From the IMG/VR virus record IMGVR_UViG_3300027861_000020: 64,000 nucleotides of DNA. One strand, given 5' to 3'. The notes below the pieces were generated by a model. The model was not told where the DNA came from. It was given only the letters and a program-made list of their open reading frames with translations, and ran no database searches. Below are positions 4,665 to 56,140 of the stretch, in pieces. The number at the start of each line of letters is the position of its first letter. Within the stretch, counting starts at the first letter, position 1. Source of the DNA: a virus. A program made the position numbers and the translations under genes.

Positions 4665-4666
4665 AT

Positions 4667-4978: not shown

Positions 4979-4980
4979 TT

Positions 4981-5310
4981 ATGCTATTTTGGATTTCAAT
5001 GTATATTTTACATGTTTTAATTAGTTATAAGTTATTTTGTATATCTTGGGCTTTAAGTTTTGACATAAAAGATAAAGATAGAATCTTTTTCCTAATTATT
5101 TCACTTATGCCTGTTATCGGAATTTCAGTTGGTCTTATTTTTCTAATTTTTGGTCTACTCGAAAATGATGAAACTAGAGGTAAAATAGGGAAATCCTTTA
5201 AGAAGCTTTTTTATTTTCCAGCAAAAATGATTAAATTTCTTTGGTCTATTGTAAGAGAGTTCTTAAAAGTAATTGAAAATATACCACCAAACCCAAATAA
5301 CGATATTTAA
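4981..5310 (+). CDS. membrane protein, family B copy 3
   Basis: 109 aa, SD AAAGGAGTAATTATG, paralog of 4317. Confidence 0.6.
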   Translation: MLFWISMYILHVLISYKLFCISWALSFDIKDKDRIFFLIISLMPVIGISVGLIFLIFGLLENDETRGKIGKSFKKLFYFPAKMIKFLWSIVREFLKVIENIPPNPNNDI

Positions 5311-9534: not shown

Positions 9535-9954
9535 ATGTGTACATTTAGACATGACCAAAATATTAAGTTACCAGAAGAAAAAAAAGTAATTGCTTACAAG
9601 GTATTCAGCGAATACTTTGACGATCCTACACCTTTTTCTGATATTAACAAAAATACCCCTTTTAAATTTGGAAAAAATATATGGGATGAAAAAACAGGAA
9701 AAGGATTACATGATGATCAAGAAGGATTTCAAGTATTTGTCACAAAAGAACATGCTATTAAATGGATAACACAAGATGGGAAATGTGAAAATATTAGACA
9801 TATATTCCCTCTTTGCCCTGTGACCATATATACTAAAGATATAGTAAAAGTTACTGATGATTTTAATGATGCTTGGCTTGGACCTTATGAAGCTTATGAA
9901 GTAAAAAGCTTCTCTATCTATAAAAAAGACTGGAAAAATAGGCTTAAAAATTAA
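9535..9954 (+). CDS. MC-family protein, paralog 3
   Basis: 139 aa, MCTF..AYKVF..EGFQVF; SD AAAGGATATAAGATG. Confidence 0.7.
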   Translation: MCTFRHDQNIKLPEEKKVIAYKVFSEYFDDPTPFSDINKNTPFKFGKNIWDEKTGKGLHDDQEGFQVFVTKEHAIKWITQDGKCENIRHIFPLCPVTIYTKDIVKVTDDFNDAWLGPYEAYEVKSFSIYKKDWKNRLKN

Positions 9955-10974: not shown

Positions 10975-11367
10975 ATGTGTACTTTAAGAAATTCTAAAAA
11001 TGTCAAAATGCCCAAAACTAAGACTTTTACTGCTTATAAAGTCTTTAATAGAGAATATAGATCTATCCCCCACTGTTTTATGGGAACAACCAGTTTTAAG
11101 ATTGGGACTAACATATGGAATGTAAAAGAGGGGAGAGGGGAAAGGGGGGATCAAGATGGTTTTCAGGTCTTTGTGAATAAAAAAGATGCTAAAAGATATG
11201 CTTTCCAAGGGGATTTCTTATGCCCTGTTAAAATAGAGACAAAAAATGTCGTAAAAGCAGGACTTGCAGAAAATGGAGATCAAGCTTATGAAGTAAAAAA
11301 GTTTGTTTTAAGTAAAAAAACTTGGGAGAATAAAAAACAATCAAAAAAGGATAACTATGACTATTAA
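10975..11367 (+). CDS. MC-family protein, paralog 4
   Basis: 130 aa, MCTL..AYKVF..DGFQVF; cassette at 10924. Confidence 0.7.
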   Translation: MCTLRNSKNVKMPKTKTFTAYKVFNREYRSIPHCFMGTTSFKIGTNIWNVKEGRGERGDQDGFQVFVNKKDAKRYAFQGDFLCPVKIETKNVVKAGLAENGDQAYEVKKFVLSKKTWENKKQSKKDNYDY

Positions 11368-11557
11368 AAATATAATAAGACTAATACTATGGATATGCCT
11401 TTTACCAATTATTGTACCATTTATTCTGTTTATGCTTTCTATCCTAATAATTACAGATTCAATAGCTACAGTATTTAATTTTATGGTAGATAACGAGGAA
11501 ATTCCATTTAAACTAACTAGAGAATTATTTAAAGACCTAAAAAATACTAAAGGATAA
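11357..11557 (+). CDS. small hydrophobic membrane protein
   Basis: 66 aa; IIRLILWICLLPIIVPFILF, paralog of 14574 and 130 ORFs. Confidence 0.5.
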   Translation: MTIKNIIRLILWICLLPIIVPFILFMLSILIITDSIATVFNFMVDNEEIPFKLTRELFKDLKNTKG

Positions 11558-11559
11558 TT

Positions 11560-11727
11560 ATGACTACAAGAGAAATTAAAAATCAGACAGATGAAATATA
11601 TAATCATCTATACTCTAAAATAACAGTAACAAGCAATGATTATAGAGTAGAATGTATCAAAGCAACTGCCGAAATTATGAAAGCATTAATTATAGCGAAT
11701 ACAATAGAAAAAATCAAAGGAATATAA
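11560..11727 (+). CDS. small hypothetical protein (55 aa)
   Basis: SD AAAGGATAATTATG, ends TAA fused to TTTTCGCGAAAAA motif. Confidence 0.45.
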   Translation: MTTREIKNQTDEIYNHLYSKITVTSNDYRVECIKATAEIMKALIIANTIEKIKGI

Positions 11728-11751
11728 TTTTCGCGAAAAAATAAGGAATAA

Positions 11752-11934
11752 ATGGATAACCCACTAAGATACAAAACAATAACAACCGAAAAATGCGAAA
11801 AAACTCATAGAAAAAAAATTGATGAAGCTAAATTAGATACTACTATACAAATAGAAGAAATAAGAACTCTATATGATGTAGTAGATAATGGAATAGTATG
11901 GAAAAGTAGAATACTATATAGAATAAAGGATTAA
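11752..11934 (+). CDS. hypothetical protein
   Basis: 60 aa ORF, SD AAGGAATAAATG. Confidence 0.5.
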   Translation: MDNPLRYKTITTEKCEKTHRKKIDEAKLDTTIQIEEIRTLYDVVDNGIVWKSRILYRIKD

Positions 11935-11935
11935 T

Positions 11936-12358
11936 ATGTGCTTAAACACCAAATACGGCCTTAATAGAAAAAGAAAATTTATAGATGAAATACCAGAAGA
12001 AGGTATTAAAGTATATAAAGTAGTGAACAAATTGGGGAATGGGACTTATAGATCAATATTTCATTGTTCAGATTATCACGATGGACTTAATATCGCATAT
12101 AAAGAGGTGATAACAACTGATAGTTACTGGGGAATACCTAAAGAATATCTGTCAGGTTTCCATTTCTTCAAATCTAAAAGAACTGCTAACAAATATATCA
12201 GTTTCGCAAGTGGGAGATTAACATTTGGAATAGCAGTTGTTGTAGAAGCTATCGTTAAAAAAGGATGGGTTAATGAAGTCGGAGAAGATGGGCAACACTA
12301 CAAAAGTAGAAACCTAACAGTAGTAGCTAGTAAAGCAATTTTCAATCTAAAAGGCTAA
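11936..12358 (+). CDS. MC-family protein, paralog 5 (divergent)
   Basis: 140 aa, MCLN..VYKVV..SGFHFF. Confidence 0.65.
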   Translation: MCLNTKYGLNRKRKFIDEIPEEGIKVYKVVNKLGNGTYRSIFHCSDYHDGLNIAYKEVITTDSYWGIPKEYLSGFHFFKSKRTANKYISFASGRLTFGIAVVVEAIVKKGWVNEVGEDGQHYKSRNLTVVASKAIFNLKG

Positions 12359-26006: not shown

Positions 26007-26810
26007 ATGAGCAAACCACTTGGAATTATCGTCTATAAAGGTAAAAGCATGCTTGATGGAAAGCCTATTGTCGCTATTGCCACCGGAATAGATAAAAAAA
26101 CAGCTAATGAGAAAATAGGCGATATGATACCTATTTGGATTATGCGAGCCGATGAAAATCCTGTTAGGGCTCAAAAAATGGGGGACGATATTTCTGTTTG
26201 TCCTGATGATTGCAAACACAAACATTTCGGGTCTTGTTATGTAAATTTACATCATGGTCCTGGTAATGTTTATAGAGCATTCCATAATGATCGTTACGAA
26301 ATGCTTAATGATGAAAATATTAAGAAGTTTGAAGGTCGTAATATCCGTTTAGGAGCTTACGGTGACCCTACGGCAGTACCTTTGGATGTTTGGGATAGTA
26401 TTTGTTCTCTTTCTTCTGGTTATACTGCTTATACTCATAACTGGCGTAAAAAGCAATTTAATAGTTATAAGAAGTATTGTATGGCTTCTGTAGAAACGGA
26501 TAAAGAATCTCTACAAGCTACTTCTAAGGGTTTTAGGACTTTTAGAGCTAGAACTGCGGATGAAAAAGTTTCTAAAAAAGAGTTTGTATGTCCTGCTTCT
26601 AAAGAAGGAAAACAAGTTACAACATGTTCTAAATGTAAAGCTTGTTCAGGTACTGCAAGTAAAGGTAAATGTCCCACAATTATTGTCCATGGGGGCGGAG
26701 CTAATGGCTTTAGAGCTAAGAGGTTTATTGAAGGGATGAAAAAGGTACGGAATAAACAGAGATATAAAATCAATTATGCTGAAAGGCTAGAATTGATAAA
26801 TAGTCTTTAG
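26007..26810 (+). CDS. conserved hypothetical Cys-rich protein
   Basis: 267 aa; cassette at 25940; VCPDDCKHKHFGSCY...CSKCKACSG; GC-richer. Confidence 0.7.
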   Translation: MSKPLGIIVYKGKSMLDGKPIVAIATGIDKKTANEKIGDMIPIWIMRADENPVRAQKMGDDISVCPDDCKHKHFGSCYVNLHHGPGNVYRAFHNDRYEMLNDENIKKFEGRNIRLGAYGDPTAVPLDVWDSICSLSSGYTAYTHNWRKKQFNSYKKYCMASVETDKESLQATSKGFRTFRARTADEKVSKKEFVCPASKEGKQVTTCSKCKACSGTASKGKCPTIIVHGGGANGFRAKRFIEGMKKVRNKQRYKINYAERLELINSL

Positions 26811-26863
26811 TTTTCCAGCAAAATATAAATAATAGAAGTTTAATATGGTAAAAGGAATAAGAG

Positions 26864-27571
26864 TTATAGATGGGTATCTCTGGCTCTTATTTTTTTACTC
26901 CATAAAATCATTTTATCTCTTTTTTCAAAATTATCTTTTTCCCATAGAGGTTGAAGGTTATTTAAAGACCAACAATATTTGAATTCCACATCATCAGTAG
27001 AATTATACTCAAAAAATGATTGAGGTATTATATGGTCCATTACCCATCCATTTTTACCATAGTTATCCCAATTCATTCCATCAGTAAATAGAGATTCTAA
27101 ATGTCCTTTTAATTCTTGAATAGTATATCCAACTAAGTCCTCCCAGTGTCTACCATTTTTAGATAAATTTTGAGATTTTAAAGATCGCCCAATCCCTCCT
27201 GTGATACTATTTTTCATTTTTATTATTGGATTTTTATTTATTTTTCTTTGGTATTCTCTATTATTTATTTTTTTTCTTTTTTTTACTTCTGGTCTTTTTC
27301 TATACTCTATTTCTCTATTCTTTATTTTATCTTTATTTTTTTCTAGATATTCTCTGCCATACTTTTTCATTTTTTCTTTATTTTTTAAATAATAATTTTT
27401 TATTCTTGTCTTTTTTTCTTCTTTTGTAACTCTTCTTCTTTTTATACCACTGCATCGTCTACATAAACTATTATTTTTGATAGACCTATTAAGGATATAC
27501 TTACTGTTGTATACTATTGTTTCGTTACATTCTGGACATTCTTTTGTATATTCCATATTAATTTTCTCCAT
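26864..27571 (-). CDS. HNH homing-endonuclease-like protein with Lys-rich KEYxEKNKxKI repeats
   Basis: 235 aa on minus strand; C-terminal DHIIPQ...NLQPLWEKDN His-Me finger; N-terminal Cys4 (CPECNE...CRRC); 60% identical C-terminus to 37311-37955. Confidence 0.75.
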   Translation of the reverse strand: MEKINMEYTKECPECNETIVYNSKYILNRSIKNNSLCRRCSGIKRRRVTKEEKKTRIKNYYLKNKEKMKKYGREYLEKNKDKIKNREIEYRKRPEVKKRKKINNREYQRKINKNPIIKMKNSITGGIGRSLKSQNLSKNGRHWEDLVGYTIQELKGHLESLFTDGMNWDNYGKNGWVMDHIIPQSFFEYNSTDDVEFKYCWSLNNLQPLWEKDNFEKRDKMILWSKKIRARDTHL

Positions 27572-27810
27572 AAAAAAAGAGTAAATTCAATTACGGTAAC
27601 GACTCCGTAAAAGAAGATACTCTTTATACTATATATATCGACTTAACACCTTGAAAGTCGTTAGCAGATGTTAATACTATTATATACTGTAAAAGAATTT
27701 AATATCCTTTTTTATTTTAATAAATTCATTTTCCAGCAATATAAAAGTAATTAACTGACTAATTAATTAATAAGTCTTATTATTTATATGTTATTAAAAA
27801 GGGATTAAGA

Positions 27811-28122
27811 ATGCCAAAATTTTATATTTACAGTGGGGACTTGCAAGAAGTTGTTCAAGCTGATGATTACAAACAGGCTTTAATAAAAACTTTTTCAGTA
27901 AAGCCAGATGATAATATGATGTTATCTTCTTGTGTTTTTGTTAGTGAAAAAGGTTTTATGTTTGATAATAGTTTGGGTGGGACAGAAGATGATATAAATA
28001 GGCATAGAAAAAATGCCTGTAAGATGATAGAATTTTCTGATGATTTTATTTTACCACACGATAGTGATTTATTGTTAAAAACAGAATTGATTTTAGATAT
28101 TGTAAAGAAAGGGATGGAATGA
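27811..28122 (+). CDS. hypothetical protein
   Basis: 103 aa; cassette at 27727, SD AAAAGGGATTAAGAATG. Confidence 0.6.
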   Translation: MPKFYIYSGDLQEVVQADDYKQALIKTFSVKPDDNMMLSSCVFVSEKGFMFDNSLGGTEDDINRHRKNACKMIEFSDDFILPHDSDLLLKTELILDIVKKGME

Positions 28123-29081
28123 GTCATTTTACAGTTTTAGTAATTGGGGCGAAAAATGCAAAAGAAATAGATGAAAAACTCTATAAATTTTGGGAATTGG
28201 ATTTAAGTAGAGAAGAACTATTACTAGACCCAAGAGCAGAATTTAATTTTGAATATTCTCTAGAAGAAGCTATGGAAATGTATGCTAAATTTGTATATAC
28301 TGCACCGACTAAAGAGCAAATTGAATATGCTCATAAAAATCTTTTGAAGAATGTCAAGGGAGATTACAGCACTACTATTGAGGCCATTAACGAGGAAAGA
28401 TATCAAGAATGGATTAAGGCTGAAAATCTTTCTGAATCTGCTGTTAGGTATAAATGGGCTAAAGATAAGTATGAATCTTTTACCGACTATATGGAAGGTT
28501 ATCATGGATATTCTTATAGCATGGACGATGAAGGTTTTGGTTATCATAGTAATCCTAATGCTAAATGGGATTGGTTTCAGATTGGTGGGCGATGGTCTGG
28601 TTATTGGAAGCTTAAAGACAATAAAGATGGTCTGATGGGAGAAAAGAGTTGGGCTTGTGGGGATAAAGAAATTCCAGAAAACAGATGTGATATTGCTCGA
28701 ATTGGGGATATTGATTTTGAAGGAATGTTTCTTGATAAAAGGATTAAAGCCGAGAATAATTGGGTAGAATGTTGGGAAAAGTATCCTATTAAGATGAACG
28801 ATGATAGTAAAGATGAAAATGCTAGTCATAGATATTGGAATTATAATATCCGACAAGACGATGATACTCCAGAAAATAAAGAAAAGTATATTGATGGATT
28901 TTGTTCTTGTTCTACCTTTGCCGTATTAAAAGATGAAGAATGGTTTGAAAAAGGCAGTATGGGTTGGTGGGCTATGGTTGCTGATGAAAAAGGTCAGGAT
29001 AAATGGGACACTGAATTCAATGAGTTGATTAAGAATTTAGACCCTGATACGTATGTGGCTATTGTAGATTGTCATATTTAA
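28119..29081 (+). CDS. conserved hypothetical protein
   Basis: 320 aa, ATGA-coupled; DWFQIGGRWSGYW motif. Confidence 0.7.
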   Translation: MSHFTVLVIGAKNAKEIDEKLYKFWELDLSREELLLDPRAEFNFEYSLEEAMEMYAKFVYTAPTKEQIEYAHKNLLKNVKGDYSTTIEAINEERYQEWIKAENLSESAVRYKWAKDKYESFTDYMEGYHGYSYSMDDEGFGYHSNPNAKWDWFQIGGRWSGYWKLKDNKDGLMGEKSWACGDKEIPENRCDIARIGDIDFEGMFLDKRIKAENNWVECWEKYPIKMNDDSKDENASHRYWNYNIRQDDDTPENKEKYIDGFCSCSTFAVLKDEEWFEKGSMGWWAMVADEKGQDKWDTEFNELIKNLDPDTYVAIVDCHI

Positions 29082-29147
29082 TTTTCCAGCAAAAAATAAA
29101 GCAATAAGATTATAATTGTTAATAATATTTTAATAAAAGGGAATAAA
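29082..29147 (+). promoter_or_regulatory. long-form cassette
   Basis: TTTTCCAGCAAAAAATAAAGCAATAAGATTATAATTGTTAATAATATTTTAATAAAAGGGAATAAA. Confidence 0.55.
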
Positions 29148-29537
29148 ATGAAAAAAACAGATAAGAAAGAAATTACTGTAAATGTTAGAAAAGATAGATA
29201 CAGAGGTAGTTATAGGATATCTGGTCTTAAAACTCCGAATAGATACTGTTATCTTTGTCCGAGTATGTATGAAAAAATAATTGGGGCAGAAGTAGTAGGT
29301 AAAGTTAAATTTATTCTACGAAAAATAAAGGGAAAAGCTTCAAATTACGTTTTTCCTTTCCGCTTTGATGGAGGGGCATTAGAATCTTACTATATAGAGG
29401 AAGGAGAATTATCATATGCATGGAATTATCTAAAGTACGATGAGTTGCTTGGGGAGGCTATCAATATTAGATTATTGAAAAGATGGGCGGGAAAAAGTAT
29501 GTTTTCTATTGAGATGGAATATGAGGTAGAGATTTAA
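29148..29537 (+). CDS. hypothetical protein, family E paralog 2
   Basis: 129 aa; long-form cassette at 29082; paralog of 14210. Confidence 0.65.
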   Translation: MKKTDKKEITVNVRKDRYRGSYRISGLKTPNRYCYLCPSMYEKIIGAEVVGKVKFILRKIKGKASNYVFPFRFDGGALESYYIEEGELSYAWNYLKYDELLGEAINIRLLKRWAGKSMFSIEMEYEVEI

Positions 29538-29558
29538 AAGATTTTTATTTTCTTAAAA

Positions 29559-29592
29559 GGGTAGAATATTAAGTTATTCTGCCCTTTTTTTA
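29559..29592 (+). terminator. intrinsic terminator
   Basis: GGGTAGAAT-ATTAAGTT-ATTCTGCCC + TTTTTTT. Confidence 0.55.
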
Positions 29593-29681
29593 TTTTCCAT
29601 TTTAATATGAAATGATATTTCCAGCAATTTTATTTTTATTTTCTTTTTAATTGTTAATAACTTTATTTAAGGGATAAGATT

Positions 29682-30119
29682 ATGTTTGGACAGGGAATAA
29701 CAGGCAGTAATAAGAATGTACCGGAGTGGATCAGGGAGTTGGTATCTGAAATTGAAACTGATTATGGTTTTATGTTAAGGGATGTTTATTTTAAAGAGCC
29801 TACTAGGAATAAGAGTTATTATGGAGCTTGTTATTCTTCATATAGGAATAATATACAATTATATTTTTCCCGCGAAAAAAATGATATTAGAAAATGGATA
29901 GTATTACATGAATTAGGACACGCTATTCAGCATAAATGTTATCCTGAATCTTTGACTATAACTCCTCTTGGTAAAAATAATGTTAATCATAATAATGCTT
30001 TTTGGGATATAGTAGGGGAATTATTTGCTAAGTATAATGTATTAGATACTGCTATTGAAAGAGAATATAAAAAAGGAAGAAAGTATATTAAGAAGAATTT
30101 CCAGCAAGTAATAGTTTAA
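29682..30119 (+). CDS. SprT-like HExxH zinc metallopeptidase-like protein
   Basis: 145 aa; WIVLHELGHAIQH motif preceded by YYGACYSS..IQLYFS. Confidence 0.65.
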   Translation: MFGQGITGSNKNVPEWIRELVSEIETDYGFMLRDVYFKEPTRNKSYYGACYSSYRNNIQLYFSREKNDIRKWIVLHELGHAIQHKCYPESLTITPLGKNNVNHNNAFWDIVGELFAKYNVLDTAIEREYKKGRKYIKKNFQQVIV

Positions 30120-30132
30120 TAAGAATAATATT

Positions 30133-30261
30133 ATGAGTAATAAAAAGAAAAAAATTAGATTTGAAAAAATGCTTGGTAAAATGTTTAAATCTTATAGTTG
30201 TAAACGAGCGGTAAAAGATATAGAGAATAATAGAAAGCATAAACCGAAAGGGCAAAGATAA
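30133..30261 (+). CDS. small basic protein (42 aa)
   Basis: follows cassette fragment at 30096; weak SD. Confidence 0.4.
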   Translation: MSNKKKKIRFEKMLGKMFKSYSCKRAVKDIENNRKHKPKGQR

Positions 30262-30512
30262 TGAATACTGAAGATGTAACACCTACAATGGAAAGAATAG
30301 GAAGTCTGAAAGTAGGAGATTGTTTTTGGAAGAAAAGAGATAGATCTTTATATACGATAATGAAACAAAATTGTTACGAATGTAAGATTAGAGAAGATGG
30401 AAAAATAACAGTATATAATTTGTCTTTAAATCTAATAAGTCATATTGATGCCAACGAATGGGTTATCTTGGCTTATCACGTAAAAATAGAAACTCAAACA
30501 AGAAAAGGATAA
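30261..30512 (+). CDS. hypothetical protein
   Basis: 83 aa ORF, TAATG coupling. Confidence 0.55.
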   Translation: MNTEDVTPTMERIGSLKVGDCFWKKRDRSLYTIMKQNCYECKIREDGKITVYNLSLNLISHIDANEWVILAYHVKIETQTRKG

Positions 30513-30516
30513 GATA

Positions 30517-30951
30517 ATGTTAGATAGAATAGAAATATCAGAAGATATAAATTTTGGTAGTTTGTTGACAACTGTTGAAATTCCTTATCATAAAATTCTT
30601 CAGATGTTGGGAGAACCAAACGGGGAAACTGATGGTTATAAAACAGATGTAGAATGGCAATTTAAATTTGATGGAATTGAATTTTATCTTTATAATTATA
30701 AAGATGGAATCAATTATTGTGGTTCATCTGGACTTCCTGATGTTTGTCTTGCTGATTGGCATATTGGAGGAGAGGATAATGAGAAGGCTATTGAATTGGC
30801 TAATTATCTTTTGGACAATGAGCCTAATCCAGAGATAGATTTTCCAAAAGTAGAGAATCAAGATATTGAAGATATGATTCATAAAATAAGAAAATTGGGT
30901 TATGTTGAGTATATTCAAGTAAAGAATTTTCTAGAAGAGATTGGAGCTTAA
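30517..30951 (+). CDS. hypothetical protein
   Basis: 144 aa ORF, SD AAAAGGATAAGATAATG. Confidence 0.6.
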   Translation: MLDRIEISEDINFGSLLTTVEIPYHKILQMLGEPNGETDGYKTDVEWQFKFDGIEFYLYNYKDGINYCGSSGLPDVCLADWHIGGEDNEKAIELANYLLDNEPNPEIDFPKVENQDIEDMIHKIRKLGYVEYIQVKNFLEEIGA

Positions 30952-30953
30952 TA

Positions 30954-31169
30954 ATGGATAAAAAAGCAAAATTAGTTGAATTTAGTATTATGACAAGAGT
31001 TTTAGTTGATGATAAGGTTGATGGTCAAGCTCTTGAACTTCAGGCTTTTCATCTAGCTAAGAATAAGATATTAGATGATCCTAGGAGTTTCTTATACATA
31101 GAGAATATGATAGAGATTGAAGATGATGAAGAATGTCCTTATGATCCTGAATTTGATAAAGATTTGTAA
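30954..31169 (+). CDS. hypothetical acidic protein
   Basis: 71 aa ORF 2 nt after previous stop. Confidence 0.55.
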   Translation: MDKKAKLVEFSIMTRVLVDDKVDGQALELQAFHLAKNKILDDPRSFLYIENMIEIEDDEECPYDPEFDKDL

Positions 31170-31205
31170 AATTCCAGCAAATAAAAATTTAATAAGGAGT
31201 AAAAT

Positions 31206-31352
31206 ATGGATAACACAGAAATTAAATTTTTAAATCATTATTATTGTCCTGATTGCAATATAGAATGGGACGATGAATGGGACTCTACTTGCGATGATGA
31301 ATGTCCTGAATGTAGAAAAGAGTATTCACCTTATAAATCAGAGGATATATAA
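31206..31352 (+). CDS. zinc-ribbon small protein (48 aa)
   Basis: SD AAGGAGTAAAATATG; CPDC...CPEC. Confidence 0.5.
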   Translation: MDNTEIKFLNHYYCPDCNIEWDDEWDSTCDDECPECRKEYSPYKSEDI

Positions 31353-31774
31353 TGGATAATAAATATTTAATCAAATTGTTAAGAATGAATAATGAAAAAT
31401 TATACGCTATTGGCGATGGGGCTACATATATTGTTAAGGCAAATAACGAAATGATAGCAAAATTAACAGATGAAATTACAGATGTTATTACTGCTGAAAT
31501 AGTTATTGAAGGCGAAGATACTATAATTAAAGAATATCCAGAGATGGATTCTAATTCCGATTTTGAAGTTTTAGCATCTGATATTTGGGATAATATATTT
31601 GAAAAAGTTGATGATTATGAAAATAAAGATTTGTATATTACTTTTATGAACAAAAATAAGAATCTTTGGGGTTTCAATAACGGAAGTATAGATTTTTATC
31701 CTTGCGAATGCGGTAGAGGAATGATTTATGGAGGGGCTCATATGTGTTCTTGTTGTTGGGATGAAATGTCTTAA
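31352..31774 (+). CDS. hypothetical protein
   Basis: 140 aa, TAATG overlap; C-terminal CECGRG..CSCCWDE. Confidence 0.6.
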   Translation: MDNKYLIKLLRMNNEKLYAIGDGATYIVKANNEMIAKLTDEITDVITAEIVIEGEDTIIKEYPEMDSNSDFEVLASDIWDNIFEKVDDYENKDLYITFMNKNKNLWGFNNGSIDFYPCECGRGMIYGGAHMCSCCWDEMS

Positions 31775-31841
31775 TTTTCCAGCAAATTAAATTTTTTTAA
31801 GTAATAAAATGTTAATGATATTTCATAGAAAAGGATTAAAA

Positions 31842-32141
31842 ATGGGAGCTTGTTTTGATAGTGATTTTATTAAAGACCCTGAATTAAAAATGACTGATAA
31901 AGAACTTGTGATGAAAGCAAGGGATATCTTTGAAGAATCTGCTTACATGAATGGTCATGGCGGTTATTCTGGGACTTTAGCTGAAAAGAATAGTATTCAT
32001 ATTCATAGGCATAAGGTTTGTAAGAATCCCGCAGAGGCTTGGGATTATATGGATGAACTGGATAGCGACAAATGGGGGCCAGCGGATTGCGTACCTGTTA
32101 AAGGTGAAGGTTGGGCTATTGGCGGATATTGTTCAAGTTAA
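31842..32141 (+). CDS. hypothetical protein (track ORF 31809 trimmed to SD-supported ATG)
   Basis: 99 aa; SD AAAAGGATTAAAAATG. Confidence 0.6.
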   Translation: MGACFDSDFIKDPELKMTDKELVMKARDIFEESAYMNGHGGYSGTLAEKNSIHIHRHKVCKNPAEAWDYMDELDSDKWGPADCVPVKGEGWAIGGYCSS

Positions 32142-32257
32142 AGGAGAACAAGAATGAGTAAAAAAGATATTATATTTGTAGTTTTTTGGTTTGTTCTTTT
32201 TTCGTTAGTTTTTATGGGTTATTGTTTTAGTTGGTGTAATTAAAAAGGGAAAATAAT

Positions 32258-32542
32258 ATGTTTGATGATGACAATATAAATCAGCAGGACGTTGATAGGT
32301 CTATAACTACGCAGAAAGCCCAGCACTACTCTACTTATCATTTTGCCTATAAGAACATTGAAAGGCTTAATAATGATAGATTAAGAGGTAGTGGAGCAAT
32401 TATAACCATTACCCATTTAAATGGGAAGGCTTGCGTTGAACCTGTTATGATTAAGGACGGTTTAAGCGATGAAACTATAAAAGCGATACAGGCTGATTTA
32501 AAAAGAAGTCAGCAAAGTATGGATGTTTTTAAAATTAAATAA
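32258..32542 (+). CDS. hypothetical protein
   Basis: 94 aa ORF, SD AAAAGGGAAAATAATATG. Confidence 0.55.
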   Translation: MFDDDNINQQDVDRSITTQKAQHYSTYHFAYKNIERLNNDRLRGSGAIITITHLNGKACVEPVMIKDGLSDETIKAIQADLKRSQQSMDVFKIK

Positions 32543-32581
32543 AGAATTTCCAGCAATTTAAAAAATAAAAGGGATAAAGAT

Positions 32582-32725
32582 ATGGAAAAAGAAAAAATTG
32601 ATAAGATGGTTGATGAAATAAAAGACATGTTGACAGAAGTAGGATATGATGCTAAGTTTGCTGATGATAAACTTAAGAAACATTCTGCTAAAACAATAGA
32701 TTCTATTTATAAAATCTTAACTTAG
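32582..32725 (+). CDS. small hypothetical protein (47 aa)
   Basis: cassette at 32546, SD AAAGGGATAAAGATATG. Confidence 0.45.
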   Translation: MEKEKIDKMVDEIKDMLTEVGYDAKFADDKLKKHSAKTIDSIYKILT

Positions 32726-32737
32726 AAGGGAAATAAA

Positions 32738-33253
32738 ATGGTTTTTATAATATTATCAATAATTTTAATAACAGTTATAGTCTGGGGCGTAGATAAGAGC
32801 GAAAAAATTCCAGCATTTTTGGGGATGTCATTTTTATGTACAATTGTCAGTCTGATGTTGATGATGCTATTTAGTATTCCTCATCAAGTATCAGATGGGA
32901 CTTTATCAGTTGATATAGTTCAACTCAAATCTGATGTTCAAGGAGAGGCAAGGGGAGCGGGTTGTTTTCTTGGATGGAGTGTTTCTGGGGGAAAACAACA
33001 ATATGTAGTTATGGAAAGAAAAAATGAGATAATGAGAAGAGTTTTTCTTAATCAAGACTCAACTTATATTGTAGAATCAGATTCTAGTCCTAGAGTTGAA
33101 TATCAAGCTTATAAAGACAAATTATATAAATTTCAAACATGGTTTTGTTTTCCTACTTCAGAACAGGAATCTAAACAATATTATTATACTAAAGAAGCAA
33201 TTATATATGTTCCTAAAGGTACTGTAGTTCAAGATTATCAACAAATTAAATAA
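32738..33253 (+). CDS. membrane-anchored hypothetical protein
   Basis: 171 aa, SD GAAGGGAAATAAAATG, N-terminal TM pair. Confidence 0.6.
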   Translation: MVFIILSIILITVIVWGVDKSEKIPAFLGMSFLCTIVSLMLMMLFSIPHQVSDGTLSVDIVQLKSDVQGEARGAGCFLGWSVSGGKQQYVVMERKNEIMRRVFLNQDSTYIVESDSSPRVEYQAYKDKLYKFQTWFCFPTSEQESKQYYYTKEAIIYVPKGTVVQDYQQIK

Positions 33254-33264
33254 GAGGAAATAAG

Positions 33265-33774
33265 ATGCAAGGATATGAAGGAATTTTAAGAGTTGTAAAG
33301 GGTGATGTTACTAATCCTCAAAGAGCAAAAGATAATGAAATAGTTATTATCCCTCATTGTTGCAATAATAAAAAAATATGGGGTGGAGGTTTTGTAATTG
33401 CTTTATCTAAGAAATGGAAAGAGCCGGAAAAAATATATAGAGACTTCTTTAATCAACAATATCCTACATTAGGTCACGTTTGCTATGCAGAAGTAAATAA
33501 AAGACTTATAGTTGCTAATATGATCGGGCAAGATGGTATTATGGCAGACACAAACCCTAAACCCATTAAATACAGGGATTTAGCGAATGCTATGTATAAT
33601 GTCTTTGAATATGTAGAGATGGTAAAATCTAGAACTTCTGACCCCGTAGCAATACACGCCCCCAAATTTGGAAGTTTAAGGGCAGGAGGGAACTGGAATT
33701 TTCTATTAGATTTGATAGCTGAAATATGGATTCAGAACGGGATAGACGTAACAATTTATGAATTTGAAGAATAA
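33265..33774 (+). CDS. macro-domain (ADP-ribose-binding / ADP-ribosyl hydrolase family) protein
   Basis: 169 aa; VKGDVT..(17)..EIVIIPHCCNNKKIWGGGFVIAL matches macro motif GDIT...AIVNAAN..L.GGGV..AI; distal IHAPKFGSLRAGGNW ~ IAFP.IGTG.YG. Confidence 0.75.
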   Translation: MQGYEGILRVVKGDVTNPQRAKDNEIVIIPHCCNNKKIWGGGFVIALSKKWKEPEKIYRDFFNQQYPTLGHVCYAEVNKRLIVANMIGQDGIMADTNPKPIKYRDLANAMYNVFEYVEMVKSRTSDPVAIHAPKFGSLRAGGNWNFLLDLIAEIWIQNGIDVTIYEFEE

Positions 33775-33983
33775 ATAAACTATCAACTAATCATTTCAAA
33801 AAACGAAGTGATAAAAGAAAAAATAATTTTCCATCAAATAAAAATTTAATAAGAATAAGATTAGTAGTTTAAGTGCTAAAATGATGATTGAAGCTCTGTC
33901 CAAAATTTGAAGTTTGTATCTTCTCTAACAAGATGGGGAATCGAAACCCCCTAATTTTATTCTTTTTTATTGAAAGTAAAATA

Positions 33984-37098: not shown

Positions 37099-37314
37099 AT
37101 GGAATCTAAACCTAGACAGATAGACGATCATCTAAAATCTTTAAGTAAAGATGATATTAAAAGGTTGATAGTAGAAGCTTGTTTTAATCAGCTTGGGAAA
37201 AATAGAGAAGAAGAAATGAGTGATACTTCTCCAGAATCTGCGGTTATGTTTGCTATGTTCTGGAATGACCCAGAAGAAGCTCTTAAATATATGTTAGATA
37301 ATGCGAAAGGTTAA
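37099..37314 (+). CDS. hypothetical protein
   Basis: 71 aa; cassette at 37032, SD AAAAGGATAAATAAAAATG. Confidence 0.55.
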   Translation: MESKPRQIDDHLKSLSKDDIKRLIVEACFNQLGKNREEEMSDTSPESAVMFAMFWNDPEEALKYMLDNAKG

Positions 37315-37955
37315 AAAATATTTCTAGCATTAACTTCTTTACCCCATAAAATAATTTTGTCTTTTTTAGAATTATTGTCTTTTTCCCATAAAGGTTGAAG
37401 ATTATTTAAAGACCAACAATATAAAAATTCAACATCATTAGTGGAATTGTATTTAAAGAATGTTTGAGGGATAATATGATCTATCACCCAATCTCCATAA
37501 TTGTCCCAATTCATTCTTTTGGTAAATAGAGATTCTAAATGATCTATTAGCTCTTGAAGAGTATATCCGATAATATCTTCCCAACGTTTTTTATTTTTAG
37601 ATAATTTATTAGATTTTAAAGAATTTCTTATATTTGTAGAAAAATTATGAGAAATCCTTACCATTGAATCTTTTCTGTATTCTTTTAAATATTTTCTTCT
37701 TTTTTCTTTATTTTCAAGTTGATTAGCATATTCTTTTATATATGCTTTTTTTCTTTCTTTAACTTCTGGTTTATTATCATATTCTTTTCTTTTTTTTCGA
37801 AATTCTGGGTCCTTAAGATCTTCTTTGTATTTTTTCTTTTGTCTCTCACTTATCTTTTTTTTATTTTTTTCAGCATATATTTTTCTTTGTTTTAATATCT
37901 TATCTTTATTTTTTAAATAATATTCTTTTTTATTTTCTTTTTCGTTGTAGCTCAT
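37311..37955 (-). CDS. HNH homing-endonuclease-like protein with Lys-rich repeats (paralog of 26864-27571)
   Basis: 214 aa on minus strand; DHIIPQT...NLQPLWEKDN; convergent with 37099 gene. Confidence 0.75.
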   Translation of the reverse strand: MSYNEKENKKEYYLKNKDKILKQRKIYAEKNKKKISERQKKKYKEDLKDPEFRKKRKEYDNKPEVKERKKAYIKEYANQLENKEKRRKYLKEYRKDSMVRISHNFSTNIRNSLKSNKLSKNKKRWEDIIGYTLQELIDHLESLFTKRMNWDNYGDWVIDHIIPQTFFKYNSTNDVEFLYCWSLNNLQPLWEKDNNSKKDKIILWGKEVNARNIF

Positions 37956-39988: not shown

Positions 39989-40678
39989 ATGAATAATAAA
40001 AAGAATGAATTTTGGAAAGCTTTAATTTGTATCATTATAGTTTGTATAGGTTTTTATTGTCTATTAAAACCTAGACATGTAGCTATACCACTAAATCAAT
40101 ATGACAGTGCTTTTGTAGTCAATATAGAGCCTCGATCTATTGAGCAGTACAAAGCTGATAAAAGGGTAATAGCTAAGAATCAGGGGTTTGGAGATATAAT
40201 TTCTATACCATCAAAAAGGATTAAAGATTCTCTTAGAGAGCATGAGGGATATAGGCATACTGCTTATTATGACACAAGAGGAAACCCTACTATTGGAATT
40301 GGTTTTAATCTGATGAAAAACGGAGCAAAGCCTAGAATTGAATCTTTGGGTTTGAATTATAAAGATGTTCTTAATAAAGAAGTATCTTTAACGGACGAAC
40401 AGATAAATACTTTATTTGAATATGATTTACTGATAGCGACAAGTGATGCAATCTCTTTCTTGCCGAACCTTGTAGAACAACCTGATGAAGTTAAGATTGT
40501 TATAATTGATATGGTTTTTAATATGGGCTTAACAAGATTGAATAAGTTTAAAAGATTCAGACAAGCTTTATTTGACGAGAAATACGGAACAGCAGTTATT
40601 GAAATGAAAGATTCAAAATGGTATCACCAAGTCGGGAATAGGTCGAAAAATTTAGTCAAGATTATGGAAAGCATTTAA
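39989..40678 (+). CDS. T4-type (GH24) lysozyme/endolysin with N-terminal transmembrane anchor
   Basis: 229 aa; catalytic-region REHEGYRHTAYYDTRGNPTIGIGFNL (Glu, Asp, Thr triad as in T4 E) plus C-lobe WYHQVGNRSKNLVKIM; N-term FWKALICIIIVCIGFYCLL. Confidence 0.85.
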   Translation: MNNKKNEFWKALICIIIVCIGFYCLLKPRHVAIPLNQYDSAFVVNIEPRSIEQYKADKRVIAKNQGFGDIISIPSKRIKDSLREHEGYRHTAYYDTRGNPTIGIGFNLMKNGAKPRIESLGLNYKDVLNKEVSLTDEQINTLFEYDLLIATSDAISFLPNLVEQPDEVKIVIIDMVFNMGLTRLNKFKRFRQALFDEKYGTAVIEMKDSKWYHQVGNRSKNLVKIMESI

Positions 40679-42405: not shown

Positions 42406-42825
42406 ATGAATACTTATCAATTTACAGTAATGGCTTATGACAAAAATGAAGATAAAGATATTCGAATCATTCTTGGAGAAGCTGATGGCATAGATAAAGA
42501 AGATGCCTTTAAGAATCTTATCGCTGAAAAGGAAATAGATTCTAAGACGATAGATGATGAATATTACAAGATGAATACAGTTAAATCTTCTATTGTATCT
42601 TTTGAAACTAAAGAAATGGAAGATAAAGATATTGATTATGAATTTCTAGCAAAAGAATCTGAAATAGAGATTTTAAAAAATGATAGCAATTTCTACGATT
42701 GGCTATTGGAAAAAGCTCAGGAAGAAATAAGTTGTTGGGATGTTGAGGGGCTTTTTGATTTTGTAAAAGATTCTTTAAATACTGATGATGATGGCATAGT
42801 TGATGACTATAGGATGCAATACTAA
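42406..42825 (+). CDS. hypothetical acidic protein
   Basis: 139 aa; cassette at 42370. Confidence 0.6.
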   Translation: MNTYQFTVMAYDKNEDKDIRIILGEADGIDKEDAFKNLIAEKEIDSKTIDDEYYKMNTVKSSIVSFETKEMEDKDIDYEFLAKESEIEILKNDSNFYDWLLEKAQEEISCWDVEGLFDFVKDSLNTDDDGIVDDYRMQY

Positions 42826-43154
42826 TGATAAATCTATATGTAGATGACGAAAGAACCCCACCGAATGATAATATATATAATTGGGTTGTTGTTAGAAATT
42901 ATCTAGATGCTATTAAAATTCTGGAAGAAGAAGAAGGTAACATTGAAAGGTTATCTTTAGACCATGATTTAGGTAATATTGGGGCAACTGGATATGACAT
43001 AAGCGTTTGGATAGAGGAACAAGTTAGTAAAAGGCAGTATAAAGCTCCTAAGCGTTTATACTGCCATTCGCAGAACCCTGTTGGAAAATCTAAAATCAAA
43101 GCATGTTATCAATCTATAAAAAGGATAGAAAGAGAAAGAGAAACTAATCTCTAG
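42825..43154 (+). CDS. receiver(CheY)-like fold small protein (tentative)
   Basis: 109 aa; LYVDDER ... AIKILEE ... IERLSLDHDLG ... GYDISVWI mirrors beta1/acid pocket, beta3 phospho-Asp and beta4-alpha4 of REC domains. Confidence 0.5.
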   Translation: MINLYVDDERTPPNDNIYNWVVVRNYLDAIKILEEEEGNIERLSLDHDLGNIGATGYDISVWIEEQVSKRQYKAPKRLYCHSQNPVGKSKIKACYQSIKRIERERETNL

Positions 43155-47024: not shown

Positions 47025-47186
47025 TAATAAAGGATATTTTTCTTGATTCGTATAATATATAATTATTAGATACTTGAATCCGATAATTAAGTATCAGTAA
47101 TTTATATATTATAGAGTAATTTTCTTTCCTTTAGTCGGATTCAGGATTGATTTTTGCTCTTTTTTTTCGCGAATAAGGAGAATACA

Positions 47187-48014
47187 ATGAAAAAAGAGAA
47201 TCCGACTATTAAATGTGCTTGTGGATGTGGAGAAGAGTTTAAACTTTATAGTAAATGGGGGAAAAAAAGAAAATATGTAAGTGGGCATAATAGAAGATTA
47301 AATAAGAAACAATCGATTATTAAATGCGATTGTGGATGTGGAGAAGAACTAGAACTTTACGATATAGAGGGAAGAAAACGTAGATATATAAATGGGCATA
47401 ATAATAGAAAATACGATGATCCTAACCAACATAAAAGAGAATGGAATAAAAGAAATAAGAAAAAAAGATATGAAACAAAAAATAATAGATTATTTAGAAT
47501 TAAGTCAGAGTTAATAACTAAAAAAGGAGGATGTTGTTTAGAATGTAAAATTAAATATAATGGAGTTAATTCTAATATATTTGATTTTCATCATGTTAAT
47601 CCTGAAGAAAAACTTTTTAATATAATGCAGGGTCTTAATTGTAAAAGACTAGAAGATGTGTATAAAGAAATAAAAAAATGTATATTATTATGTTCAAATT
47701 GCCATAGGATAAAGCATCATAAATTTATTTTTGATGGTAAAATATACAAAGAAGTTCATATAATAAGAGAAAATTTAATCTTAGAAGCAGGAGATTGCTG
47801 TTCTAAGTGCAAAATTAAACGTAATGAATATAATTCAAGTATATTTGATTTCCATCATACCACCCCCGAAAACAAAAAATTTCAATTAAGTAAAAGCGGT
47901 ATTGCATACAAAAGCATAAAAGATATTAATTTAGAATTTAAAAAATGTATATTATTATGCTCAAATTGTCATCGGATAATAAAACATTCAGAAATCCAGC
48001 AAAAATCAAAATAA
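47187..48014 (+). CDS. tandem-HNH endonuclease-like protein
   Basis: 275 aa; N-terminal CACGCG/CDCGCG zinc knuckles then two repeats FDFHH..NP(E)..N...CILLCSNCHRIKHH (HNH signature); SD AAGGAGAATACAATG. Confidence 0.75.
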   Translation: MKKENPTIKCACGCGEEFKLYSKWGKKRKYVSGHNRRLNKKQSIIKCDCGCGEELELYDIEGRKRRYINGHNNRKYDDPNQHKREWNKRNKKKRYETKNNRLFRIKSELITKKGGCCLECKIKYNGVNSNIFDFHHVNPEEKLFNIMQGLNCKRLEDVYKEIKKCILLCSNCHRIKHHKFIFDGKIYKEVHIIRENLILEAGDCCSKCKIKRNEYNSSIFDFHHTTPENKKFQLSKSGIAYKSIKDINLEFKKCILLCSNCHRIIKHSEIQQKSK

Positions 48015-48055: not shown

Positions 48056-49303
48056 ATGATATACTTTGTAAACAATGAAAATAAAAAGCCTATTAAGTCT
48101 TGGTGCGAGCATGTAGAGCCTGAGGCTATGGCACAAGCCAGTAATCTTGCTAACCTACCATTTCTATATAAATGGGTCGTGCTAGAGCCGGATTGCCACC
48201 TAGGATACGGAATGCCTATAGGAGGAGTTATAGCGTTAGAAAATGCAGTAATTCCTAACGCGGTTGGCGTGGATATTGGATGTGGGATGTCCTGTTTCAA
48301 AACTTCTATAAAATCTAATAATATTTCTAAGCAACAACTAAGAAGTATTATAGAAGAAGTTAAGAAACAAATTCCTCTAGGAATGAGCCACCATTCTCAT
48401 AGTTCTAAGCAATTCAAAGAAAATTTTAAGTATTTTGAAAGAATTGAAGAGAGAATTACGCAGAAACAGTATGCGAGATTTTTTAATATTTTTGGAAAAG
48501 GAAAAACCAAAAAGGAATTGAACAAATATTTTTCTGAAAGTCTTGGTACACTGGGTGGCGGAAATCATTTTATTGAGGTACAAACAGATGAAGAAGATAA
48601 TATTTGGCTAATGATACATTCTGGATCTAGAAATGTTGGTTATAAAGTAGCTAATTATTATCATAAAAAGGCTTTGGAATTAAATAAGAAATGGCACTCA
48701 AATATTTCTAATGATGATTTAGCTTTTTTACCATCAGATTCAGAAGAAGGCATACATTATATTAAAGATATGAATTTTGCTTTGAAATATGCGGAAGAAA
48801 ATAGACGTTTAATAATGGAATCTTTTAAATCTTCTATTACTAAAGTTTTAGGAGATGTAGAGTTTAAAGATGAGATAAATATACATCATAATTTTGCGGC
48901 ATTAGAGAATCATTATGGTAAGAATGTATGGGTACACCGAAAAGGAGCTACATCAGCTAAAAAAGGTCAATTAGGTATTATTCCTGGTTCTATGGGAACT
49001 GCATCTTATATTGTTAAAGGTCTTGGAAATCCAGAATCATTTATGAGTTGTTCTCATGGAGCAGGTCGTATAATGGGTAGAAAACAGGCATCTATATCTT
49101 TAGGCAAGCAAGAATGCGAAAACTCTATGCAGGGTATTGTTTATGATGGTTTTCAAATGATTAAAGATAGAAAAGGTAAAGAGATGTTAGACTTGGGCGA
49201 AGCTCCAATGGCGTATAAGAATATCGATAATGTCATTAAATCAGAATCAGACTTAATAGAGCCTGTTGTTAGGTTAAGACCTTTAGCAGTTATTAAAGGA
49301 TAA
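48056..49303 (+). CDS. rtcB: RtcB-family RNA 3'-phosphate/2',3'-cyclic-phosphate ligase
   Basis: 415 aa; all RtcB signature motifs: GVDIGCGM, GGGNHFIE, HSGSRNVG, NIHHNF, SCSHGAGR; SD AGGAGAATTTATG. Confidence 0.9.
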   Translation: MIYFVNNENKKPIKSWCEHVEPEAMAQASNLANLPFLYKWVVLEPDCHLGYGMPIGGVIALENAVIPNAVGVDIGCGMSCFKTSIKSNNISKQQLRSIIEEVKKQIPLGMSHHSHSSKQFKENFKYFERIEERITQKQYARFFNIFGKGKTKKELNKYFSESLGTLGGGNHFIEVQTDEEDNIWLMIHSGSRNVGYKVANYYHKKALELNKKWHSNISNDDLAFLPSDSEEGIHYIKDMNFALKYAEENRRLIMESFKSSITKVLGDVEFKDEINIHHNFAALENHYGKNVWVHRKGATSAKKGQLGIIPGSMGTASYIVKGLGNPESFMSCSHGAGRIMGRKQASISLGKQECENSMQGIVYDGFQMIKDRKGKEMLDLGEAPMAYKNIDNVIKSESDLIEPVVRLRPLAVIKG

Positions 49304-50629: not shown

Positions 50630-50765
50630 ATGGGTATAGCTCAGTCAGGTTAGAGCGTTCGTTTGACATCCTTAACGTATTTACTAGTAATACGGGAAGC
50701 GTACCATTTAGGATCCTTTGGTACGAGTTGGCGAAAGGTCGCAAGTTCGAATCTTGCTACTCATT
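50630..50765 (+). tRNA. tRNA gene (anticodon region GAC, Val?) carrying a 61-nt insertion in the anticodon loop
   Basis: hand fold: acceptor ATGGGTA/TACTCAT, U8A9, D-arm GCTC-AGTCAGGTTA-GAGC, anticodon stem TTCGT/GCGAA split by 50669-50729, variable AGGTC, T-arm GCAAG-TTCGAAT-CTTGC, discriminator T. Confidence 0.6.
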
Positions 50766-55618: not shown

Positions 55619-56140
55619 ATGACTGATAATGAGATAAAACATAGACTTTGGGATGTCTATACAGAGCTTAAAAAAGAACATGATTTTGCTCTTGGGGCTT
55701 TATTTATCAAAGTATCAAAAAGACTAAGGAGTTCGGCAGGTAAATGTTTGTCTTATCCGAAACAAGACGTACATACGATTACAATGTCAAAGCCTTTACT
55801 GGACGAATTCGGTTGGGAAAGATTTGAAAAGAATTTCCGTCATGAATTGGCTCATGCTTATTGCTCAAAGAAATATGGAAAATGCAATCATAACCATATA
55901 TTTAAGAGAACTTGTGTCGCTTTTGGAGGTTCAATGAATCCTTCAATGGCAGGTTATGCATATAAAGAGGCCGCAACTACGGAATACGTAAAGACTATTA
56001 AAAAATATAAATATACTTGCCTTTGCGGAATAAGTATGGAATATGCTAAAAGAATGTCCGTAAAGATTAGAAATAGTCAGCGTCATACTTGTAGAAAATG
56101 TAAAACTCCAGTTGCTAAATGGAAAGAGGAAATGATTTAA
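55619..56140 (+). CDS. SprT-like zinc metallopeptidase-domain protein
   Basis: 173 aa; SSAGKCLSYPKQDVHTITMS...FRHELAHAY (SprT-like core with HExxH) plus C-terminal Cys/His zinc ribbon. Confidence 0.7.
   Translation: MTDNEIKHRLWDVYTELKKEHDFALGALFIKVSKRLRSSAGKCLSYPKQDVHTITMSKPLLDEFGWERFEKNFRHELAHAYCSKKYGKCNHNHIFKRTCVAFGGSMNPSMAGYAYKEAATTEYVKTIKKYKYTCLCGISMEYAKRMSVKIRNSQRHTCRKCKTPVAKWKEEMI

Follow-up and report, generated by a model that had tools for sequence, protein, structure and literature searches.

Does this viral DNA encode a genuine macrodomain enzyme, and if it does, whose ADP-ribosylation would that enzyme reverse? The question is raised by a gene in a 64-kb stretch of DNA (hereafter, the window, meaning the whole stretch that was analyzed), which a first-pass annotation had put forward as a macrodomain protein with a candidate role against host defense. 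The window has about 29% GC and is made up almost wholly of small ORFs on the plus strand, for which databases gave few matches. Standard stops are in use, and there was no evidence that stop-codon recoding accounts for the small ORFs or hides genes among them. The features that could be named are collected in Table 1.

Table 1. Positions of features in the window discussed in the text
Feature	Position	Strand	Remarks
Interval between syntenic anchors	26811..33264		Contains a PARP gene in all close relatives, none here
Upstream co-oriented ORF	32738..33253	+	171 aa; N-terminal hydrophobic helices; phrog_8077 (match at 2.2e-10)
Shine-Dalgarno-like GAGGA	33254..33258	+	6 nt 5' of the ATG, directly after the upstream TAA (33251-33253); read from sequence
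Macrodomain gene, SCO6735/BT1257 subclass of the ALC1/TARG1-like class (by sequence)	33265..33774	+	169 aa plus stop codon; ATG starts at 33265, TAA ends at 33774
Codons of G13-D14	33301..33306	+	G in 71/73 and D in 72/73 homologues
Loop 1, substrate binding: H31-C-C-N34 ... W39-G40-G41-G42	33355..33390	+	H31, N34, and G42 in 73/73
A-N-M-I-G-Q89 strand end	33514..33531	+	N85 and Q89 in 73/73
Extended mobile loop D90-K102, subclass hallmark	33532..33570	+	No gap relative to SCO6735/BT1257
Loop 2, phosphate binding: H131-A-P-K-F-G136-S-L138-R-A-G-G142-N-W144	33655..33696	+	G136 and G142 invariant
Hairpin GGGG-AATCGAAA-CCCC, then T-rich tract	33935..33969	+	In structured 209-nt intergenic region
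Phage lysozyme	39989-40678
cREC_REC domain protein	42825-43154		1.5e-21
HNH endonuclease	47154-48014
RtcB ligase	48056-49303		PF01139, 8.9e-116
SprT-like protein	55619-56140
Isochorismatase-like protein	58802-59281
DUF932 protein; DUF6908 protein			In the window
Two paralogous HNH-like ORFs		-	In the window

We asked where relatives of this gene are found. A megablast search of GenBank phages returned no close relative. In IMG/VR, relatives of the macrodomain protein are encoded at 287 loci, and several of the best are on contigs of 300 to 550 kb. Approximately 185,000 representative cellular genomes, searched with a profile from a narrower alignment, yielded only five distant homologues with no more than 35% identity. 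We therefore read the window as an accessory, early-like region of a phage that is large and probably "huge." As a whole, the protein family comprises 1,567 clusters at 50% identity (E ≤ 1e-10).

The start, stop, and length of the gene were exactly as first annotated (Table 1). The same annotation described it as standing alone with its own cassette, which does not hold. The macrodomain ORF begins only 11 nt past the stop of a co-oriented ORF, which is itself tightly packed against two further ORFs. The two genes are probably cotranscribed, and the pair also occurs in one relative (L001). The upstream ORF is not a conserved partner, because the gene at that position differs among the other relatives. 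The ORFs that overlap the macrodomain gene on the minus strand are short and without support, and promoter-like matches were at background (25 found versus 23.4 expected). Downstream of the gene, a 209-nt intergenic region folds better than shuffled controls (z = -2.85) and matches no Rfam family. It contains a hairpin of the form GGGG-N8-CCCC, which with the T-rich tract after it is a probable weak intrinsic terminator; a terminator scan flagged it on the minus strand only. The hairpin itself (33935-33951) is T-arm-like, and a tRNA or att remnant was considered. There was no tRNA or Rfam match there, so we treated it as terminator-like.

Standard domain models did not recognize the protein. 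Pfam-A and NCBIfam scans returned nothing even at E ≤ 10, and PF01661 (Macro) gave no match at that level either. The first-pass annotation had proposed that the lack of a macro HMM hit should count against its assignment. Formally that is what we found, but a control showed the test to be invalid for this subclass of macrodomains. BT1257 and SCO6735 have solved macrodomain structures. Against PF01661 they score only 18.0 and 12.5 bits, respectively, both below the 22-bit gathering threshold; TARG1 passes with 27.2 bits, and a close relative of the window protein is also without a match. Therefore, the failure of PF01661 is uninformative, since the model undercovers this subclass, and we dropped the absent Pfam and NCBIfam matches as evidence against a macro fold. 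Searching the sequences of the PDB with the window protein found BT1257 of Bacteroides thetaiotaomicron (2FG1/2AFC; 8e-27), SCO6735 of Streptomyces coelicolor (5E3B; 1e-21), and, by phmmer, the human ALC1/CHD1L macrodomain (4e-8). The protein also conforms to the three-layer alpha/beta/alpha macro fold. The macrodomain assignment is borne out by fold and sequence evidence, and we consider it secure.

To ask which residues are conserved, the window protein was aligned with 72 database homologues. H31, N34, G42, N85, Q89, P100, Y103, G136, and G142 are invariant in all 73 sequences, and G13, D14, G40, H131, P133, and F135 are conserved in at least 90% of them. The two sequence blocks that had been singled out at first reading are the best-conserved parts of the family. 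The ADP-ribose-binding loops and the adenine-contacting Asp are represented by D14, N34, G40, G42, G136, and G142, which are invariant or nearly so and align with the matching motifs of solved macrodomains. By analogy with other macrodomains, D14 would contact the adenine of ADP-ribose. A fold without ADP-ribose pocket residues was also to have counted against the assignment. However, those residues are present, and the equivalents of SCO6735 H24, N27, and Q85 are kept as H31, N34, and Q89. Q89 stands where DarG and TARG1 have their catalytic lysines (K80 and K84, respectively). (Residues of SCO6735 carry that protein's own numbering, from which the 5E3B chain is offset by +20 because of its His tag; the TARG1 sequence used is identical to PDB 2LGR.)

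We then compared the family with macrodomains of known structure. The family profile matched BT1257 (3.7e-55) and SCO6735 (4.8e-49) far better than ALC1 (7e-19), TARG1 (7e-12), Poa1p (7e-10), Thermus DarG (7e-7), or Mycobacterium tuberculosis DarG (6e-5). Pairwise identity of the window protein itself is 38% with BT1257 and 32% with SCO6735 (BLASTP 1e-29 for SCO6735). Two hallmarks of this branch have been described. SCO6735 has Gln85 in place of the catalytic lysine of DarG and TARG1, and its mobile loop exceeds theirs by five residues (PMC9411070). Activity is abolished in Q85A and Q85E mutants, and His24 and Asn27 are also important (PMC9411070). Both hallmarks are present in the window protein, which has Gln rather than Lys at the catalytic position, together with the His and the Asn, and a mobile loop that aligns without a gap to those of SCO6735 and BT1257 and exceeds that of TARG1 by about six residues in a MAFFT alignment. 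Its sequence thus places the window protein in the SCO6735/BT1257 branch of the ALC1/TARG1-like class. It differs from human TARG1 (OARD1) not only in the loop but also in the catalytic dyad, where K84/D125 of TARG1 is replaced by Q89/A140.

The likeness to SCO6735 extends to shared H-x-C-N, ANMIGQ, and HxP[KR][FI]G..AGGxW motifs, and both are single-domain proteins without an adjacent toxin. There are also differences. SCO6735 is cellular and induced by DNA damage, whereas the window protein is viral. The window protein has a three-residue N-terminal insert and a six- to seven-residue insert past the long helix. Three residues of SCO6735 associated with DNA de-ADP-ribosylation are not kept: where SCO6735 has K34 and K89, lysines that position the DNA, the window protein has G41 and M93, and L138 stands in place of the loop glycine G128. 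These positions vary across the family (A/G/S/K/R at the K34 position, V/K/I at the K89 position, and D/G/L at the G128 position), and position 138 is D in 27, G in 20, and L in 17 of the 73 homologues. Single SCO6735 mutants at K34, K89, or G128 have lowered activity, but it is not abolished (PMC9411070). The window protein is also neutral (pI 6.8), whereas SCO6735 is strongly basic (+6). The replacement of the three residues and the neutral charge are both observations that speak against a counterdefense role. We had considered using net charge to gauge DNA binding, but it does not discriminate, because an AdfM-like phage macrodomain is slightly acidic too. BT1257 is a cellular structural-genomics protein whose own function is unreported.

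Among phage macrodomains, only AdfM (PhiKZ gp104 and its chimallivirus homologues) has been reported to counteract DarTG2 (PMC13309987). As far as sequence comparison can place it, the window protein is a member of neither the DarG nor the AdfM family. The PADLOC DarG model did not match it at E ≤ 1; that model does match an Asteriusvirus macro protein (1.2e-10) and a homologue from a Streptomyces phage (1.4e-5). BLASTP against AdfM was not significant (E = 0.075). When the family profile was compared with PhiKZ gp104 by hhalign, the probability was 92.6% (E = 4.5e-7), so that homology is seen at the profile level only. The blank DarG result and the BLASTP value for AdfM are further observations against a counterdefense role. 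The catalytic lysine (DarG K80, AdfM K78) is missing, with Gln89 in its place, and no scanned ORF of the window has a DarT or ART domain that could be an adjacent partner. DarG, the antitoxin of DarTG2, has a C-terminal DarT-binding domain, whereas the window protein is a single domain of 169 aa. AdfM is more like it in form, as it too is a phage macrodomain that stands alone (about 160 aa) and falls in the same broad ALC1/TARG1/DarG-like class, and the role proposed for both is to erase DarT2 marks from DNA. However, AdfM belongs to another macrodomain family and is imported into the phage nucleus, and we saw no sign of such import for the window protein.

What might the window protein do? 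The conserved H/N/Q active site and the conserved binding loops argue for an active hydrolase like SCO6735. SCO6735 removes ADP-ribose from thymine in single-stranded DNA (ssDNA) faster than DarG or TARG1 does, and it rescues E. coli and S. coelicolor from DarT (PMC9411070). It also removes Glu/Asp-linked mono-ADP-ribose from PARP1 E988Q (PMC9411070). In addition, it reverses ADP-ribosylation of uracil in RNA and is inactive on 2'-OH RNA ADP-ribosylation. Orphan, antitoxin-like erasers are known in phages against both DarTG1 (NADAR type) and DarTG2 (AdfM). An eraser that stands alone, lacks a writer in the window, and is situated among other candidate counterdefense or repair genes fits that orphan pattern best. 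Our leading explanation, to which we give a little under an even chance, is that the window protein is a catalytically competent single-domain hydrolase that serves as an orphan, antitoxin-like counterdefense enzyme. Reversal of DarT-type DNA ADP-ribosylation would then be its most plausible function.

By analogy with SCO6735, the ADP-ribose on a modified macromolecule would be bound between loop 1 (H31...N34...G40-G42) and loop 2 (G136...G142). Gln89, held by Asn34, would position the distal ribose and its linkage, and water would hydrolyze the C1'' bond without a catalytic lysine, so that ADP-ribose is set free and the target is left unmodified. The enzyme would most likely share the substrates of SCO6735, namely ADP-ribose linked to thymine on ssDNA or to uracil on RNA and mono-ADP-ribose linked to Glu/Asp on proteins. 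In the infected cell, the enzyme might strip ADP-ribose that host DarT2-like or other ADP-ribosyltransferase defenses had put on phage nucleic acids. This role would be functionally analogous to that of chimallivirus AdfM but carried out by a different macrodomain family.

The main rival to counterdefense comes from the genes near the macrodomain gene in related phages. PARP presence was judged in every close relative with sufficient flanking sequence. All seven closest relatives, with at least 45% identity, have a PARP gene 3 to 7 kb upstream of the macrodomain gene on the same strand (L002, L003/L004, and L005 at 59 to 65% identity and L007 to L010 at 45 to 56%). Several of these PARP-linked relatives are on contigs of about 300 to 550 kb. 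Their PARP is a WGR-HD-ART protein of about 430 aa, with matches to PF00644 (2.2e-24), PF02877 (8e-8), and PF05406 (2.4e-5). It has WGR, PARP regulatory, and PARP catalytic domains, and its H-Y-E triad is intact. The location of the seven closest relatives downstream of a phage PARP is an observation against counterdefense and suggests a possible phage-internal role.

The window lacks this PARP. It shares three syntenic anchors with the relatives, which are a gene at 26007-26810, the macrodomain gene, and, farther on, the DUF932 gene. In Pfam scans, the interval between the first two contained a minus-strand HNH-like ORF (26864-27571) and unrelated small ORFs. A tblastn search of the whole 64-kb window with three of the PARPs found none (best E = 0.54). 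Two coupled ORFs, 27811-28122 and 28119-29081 (103 and 320 aa), come near PARP length, and we considered them as a divergent PARP. This was ruled out by the absence of any Pfam match, BLAST similarity, or H-Y-E motifs. The plus-strand ORFs of at least 84 aa in the window also include no other ART and no sirtuin, DarT, NADAR, or Nudix protein.

We extended the analysis to PARP and macrodomain loci in other phages. A scan in the reverse direction, with an alignment as the query, found a member of this macrodomain superfamily within 10 kb at only 7 of 78 phage PARP loci, and four of those seven are on the same contigs as the macrodomain relatives. Conversely, 76 of 80 macrodomain loci, the more distant ones, have no PARP nearby. 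Together with the six to nine unrelated genes that separate PARP from the macrodomain gene in the relatives, the low count among PARP loci rules out a general, conserved PARP-macrodomain operon. Clustering of the neighbors around the 80 viral macrodomain loci found protease, actin-like, AAA+, and glycosyltransferase genes, which reflect lineage synteny only, and no recurrent NAD or ART partner. With 7 of 78 PARP loci and none of the 76 distant macrodomain loci linked, the proximity is specific to one lineage. It is a trait of that phage lineage and a lead, not proof of functional coupling.

These data bear directly on the possibility that the enzyme erases the work of the phage's own writer, reversing ADP-ribosylation by the WGR-HD-ART PARP or another phage ART. 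It might trim Glu/Asp-linked modification, including automodification, as TARG1 does for the PARPs of eukaryotes, and so tune a reversible ADP-ribosylation run by the phage. The intact triad of the linked PARP is consistent with this, as is the activity of SCO6735 on Glu/Asp-linked mono-ADP-ribose of PARP1 E988Q (PMC9411070). L002 also has an isochorismatase-like gene, 1 kb downstream of its macrodomain gene, which points the same way. Further support comes from Streptomyces phages, whose macrodomain proteins are the closest homologues from cultured phages (28 to 35% identity; e.g., Karp gp158/gp159; "Moab," Iyer et al. 2022). They are also of the SCO6735 type (HVCN, NMVAQ), and their genes directly follow a SIR2 gene (PF02146, 1.2e-36) in a writer-eraser pair; a sirtuin-macrodomain system has been described (PMC9503650). 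However, the window gene has no such partner. There is no PARP in the syntenic slot or elsewhere in the 64 kb and no other ART or sirtuin, yet the gene retains every invariant residue. Even where both genes are present, the intervening genes argue against an operon pair, and the linkage is confined to the one lineage. We therefore regard an eraser of the phage's own writer as unlikely, although it is the strongest competitor of counterdefense.

A more specific form of this idea seems less probable still. In the clade of AT-rich huge phages, the macrodomain could be the dedicated eraser of a signaling module built on the phage's eukaryote-like PARP, with the phage of the window as a writerless variant. 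A replacement associated with a homing endonuclease would have taken out the PARP while the eraser was retained. If so, there would be a viral reversible ADP-ribosylation system of the PARP/TARG1 kind, and its eraser would also act on host-made ADP-ribosylation, possibly that of an undescribed base- or RNA-directed defense.

Of about the same low probability is a role in processing small molecules, in which the enzyme would hydrolyze ADP-ribose-1''-phosphate, O-acetyl-ADP-ribose, or immune signals derived from ADP-ribose. This would tie it to RNA repair, NAD+ metabolism, or the quenching of host signaling. Such a role is favored by a PHROG annotation as "phosphatase," by the resemblance to Poa1p, and by the arguments that Iyer et al. 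put forward (PMC9503650). However, the profile E values for SCO6735 and BT1257 are better than that for Poa1p by over 40 orders of magnitude. We found neither KptA/Tpt1 nor a 2H phosphoesterase, the makers of Appr1p, in the window, and ligation by RtcB yields no Appr1p. The RtcB, cREC, and isochorismatase genes are 9 to 25 kb away rather than adjacent.

Least probable is a noncatalytic, ALC1-like reader that binds ADP-ribose or poly(ADP-ribose) on targets or sequesters ADP-ribose-type molecules without hydrolysis. The ALC1/CHD1L macrodomain is a significant relative both by phmmer and by the family profile, and sponge-type anti-defense proteins exist. We give this reading very little credence, because the equivalents of the SCO6735 catalytic residues are strictly invariant in the family, as expected of an enzyme, and SCO6735, the nearest characterized homologue, is a very efficient hydrolase (PMC9411070).

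Much of this setting is already known. Macrodomains have been reported for 56% of jumbo phages, and ARTs of the PARP type rank among the commonest ART families in viruses (PMC9503650, PMC7824862). A related macrodomain family, to which T4 Tk.4 belongs, is present in more than 2,100 genomes of cultured phages. Phage macrodomains are therefore very common, phage PARPs have been catalogued, and an anti-DarT role has been shown for a phage macrodomain. Against this background, counterdefense is a plausible but unsurprising function, which extends known biology and overturns none of it. Two points are new. One is that a Gln-type, SCO6735-like family is widespread in uncultured large phages. The other is that in one lineage this SCO6735-like macrodomain gene is syntenic with a PARP gene that is absent from the window.

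The phage genomes with and without PARP are a natural set for asking whether phage PARPs and macrodomains cooperate. If its proposed activity is real, the window protein would also be a compact enzyme for asking how SCO6735-type hydrolases manage without the lysines and the glycine presumed to be of importance in SCO6735. In that case this family, which uses Gln in place of a catalytic lysine and is represented at 287 viral loci, would be a second and mechanistically distinct macrodomain family, beside AdfM, with a candidate role in countering defenses that ADP-ribosylate DNA or RNA.

Contigs from IMG/VR with the closest relatives of the macrodomain gene also encode a PARP (a WGR-HD-ART ADP-ribosyltransferase). 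These relatives' PARPs are about 430 aa long and have a PARP2/3-like order of WGR, helical regulatory, and ART domains, with a complete H-Y-E triad. Four of the PARP-bearing related phage contigs measure about 300 to 550 kb, and IMG/VR holds 78 loci for a PARP of this type. No PARP gene was found in the window at the syntenic slot, between the gene at 26007-26810 and the macrodomain gene. An HNH-motif ORF (26864-27571) occupies the exact position of the relatives' PARP gene. This suggests that a gene replacement tied to a homing endonuclease occurred at this slot. The ORF and its paralog are minus-strand exceptions within an otherwise all-plus-strand array, and one of the relatives has a homolog of them with 57% identity (L005:1253-1831).

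Features of the window and of related phage loci
Feature	Location	Strand	Remarks
Multi-copy paralog, ~130-165 aa	window 5325-5762	+
Multi-copy paralog, ~130-165 aa	window 7768-8265	+
Multi-copy paralog, ~130-165 aa	window 9535-9954	+
Multi-copy paralog, ~130-165 aa	window 10975-11367	+
Multi-copy paralog, ~130-165 aa	window 11936-12358	+
HNH-motif ORF	window 26864-27571	-	paralog of 37311-37955
HNH-motif ORF	window 37311-37955	-	paralog of 26864-27571
cREC_REC "cyclic-phosphate processing receiver" protein, 109 aa	window 42825-43154	+	PF20274, 1.5e-21
tRNA with insertion	window 50630-50765	+	Rfam RF00005, 52.3 bits, E 2e-8
Isochorismatase-family protein	window 58802-59281	+	PF00857, 1.6e-8, above gathering score
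PARP gene	L002:5838-7121
PARP gene	L003:102-1391
PARP gene	L005:6062-7369
PARP gene	L007:5394-6698
PARP gene	L008:5334-6620
PARP gene	L009:2660-3964
PARP gene	L010:4918-6216
SIR2-macro pair, Streptomyces phage Karp gp158-gp159	L088:2335-3495

The tRNA spans 136 nt, with a GAC (Val) anticodon when read by eye and a 63-nt insertion within or right behind the anticodon loop. The insert is too short to be a group I intron; it folds into two hairpins that lengthen the anticodon stem. ARAGORN called no tRNA in the window, including at this site. A gene for an RtcB tRNA-splicing-type ligase lies 1.3 kb upstream. Compared with shuffled controls, the intergenic region 33775-33983 behind the macrodomain gene has a significantly better fold (z -2.85). 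Here a long-range, AT-rich stem, which pairs approximately 33851-33864 and 33950-33963, surrounds a GGGG-N8-CCCC hairpin. On the minus strand this hairpin is tRNA T-arm-like (GGTTTCGATTCC). Searches of this region for tRNAs and Rfam families gave no match.

Translations of the five paralogs begin "MC(T/I/L)..." and share "AYKVF" and either "GFQ(V/M)F" or "GFH(I/F)F", and small membrane proteins stand in tandem, three at 291-1570 and three at 4317-5310. Neither these paralogs nor the membrane proteins had a Pfam match.

In cultured phages, the closest homologs of the macrodomain gene are directly 3' of a SIR2-family gene (PF02146, 1.2e-36), with a gap of 0 to 1 nt. The arrangement in phage Karp agrees with the sirtuin-macro pair known from Streptomyces phage Moab (PMC9503650). 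Iyer et al. associate the cREC_REC domain family with jumbo-phage genes for RNA repair and for the processing of NAD+/ADP-ribose. In the isochorismatase-family protein, D9 and the Cys of "NISYCVGK" could, judging by sequence, be members of a nicotinamidase-type D-K-C triad. In the related contig L002, its homolog (11480-11962) is only 1 kb downstream of the macrodomain gene, and the PARP gene is 4.4 kb away from this homolog. Therefore, these three L002 genes are a possible NAD+/ADP-ribose gene cluster.
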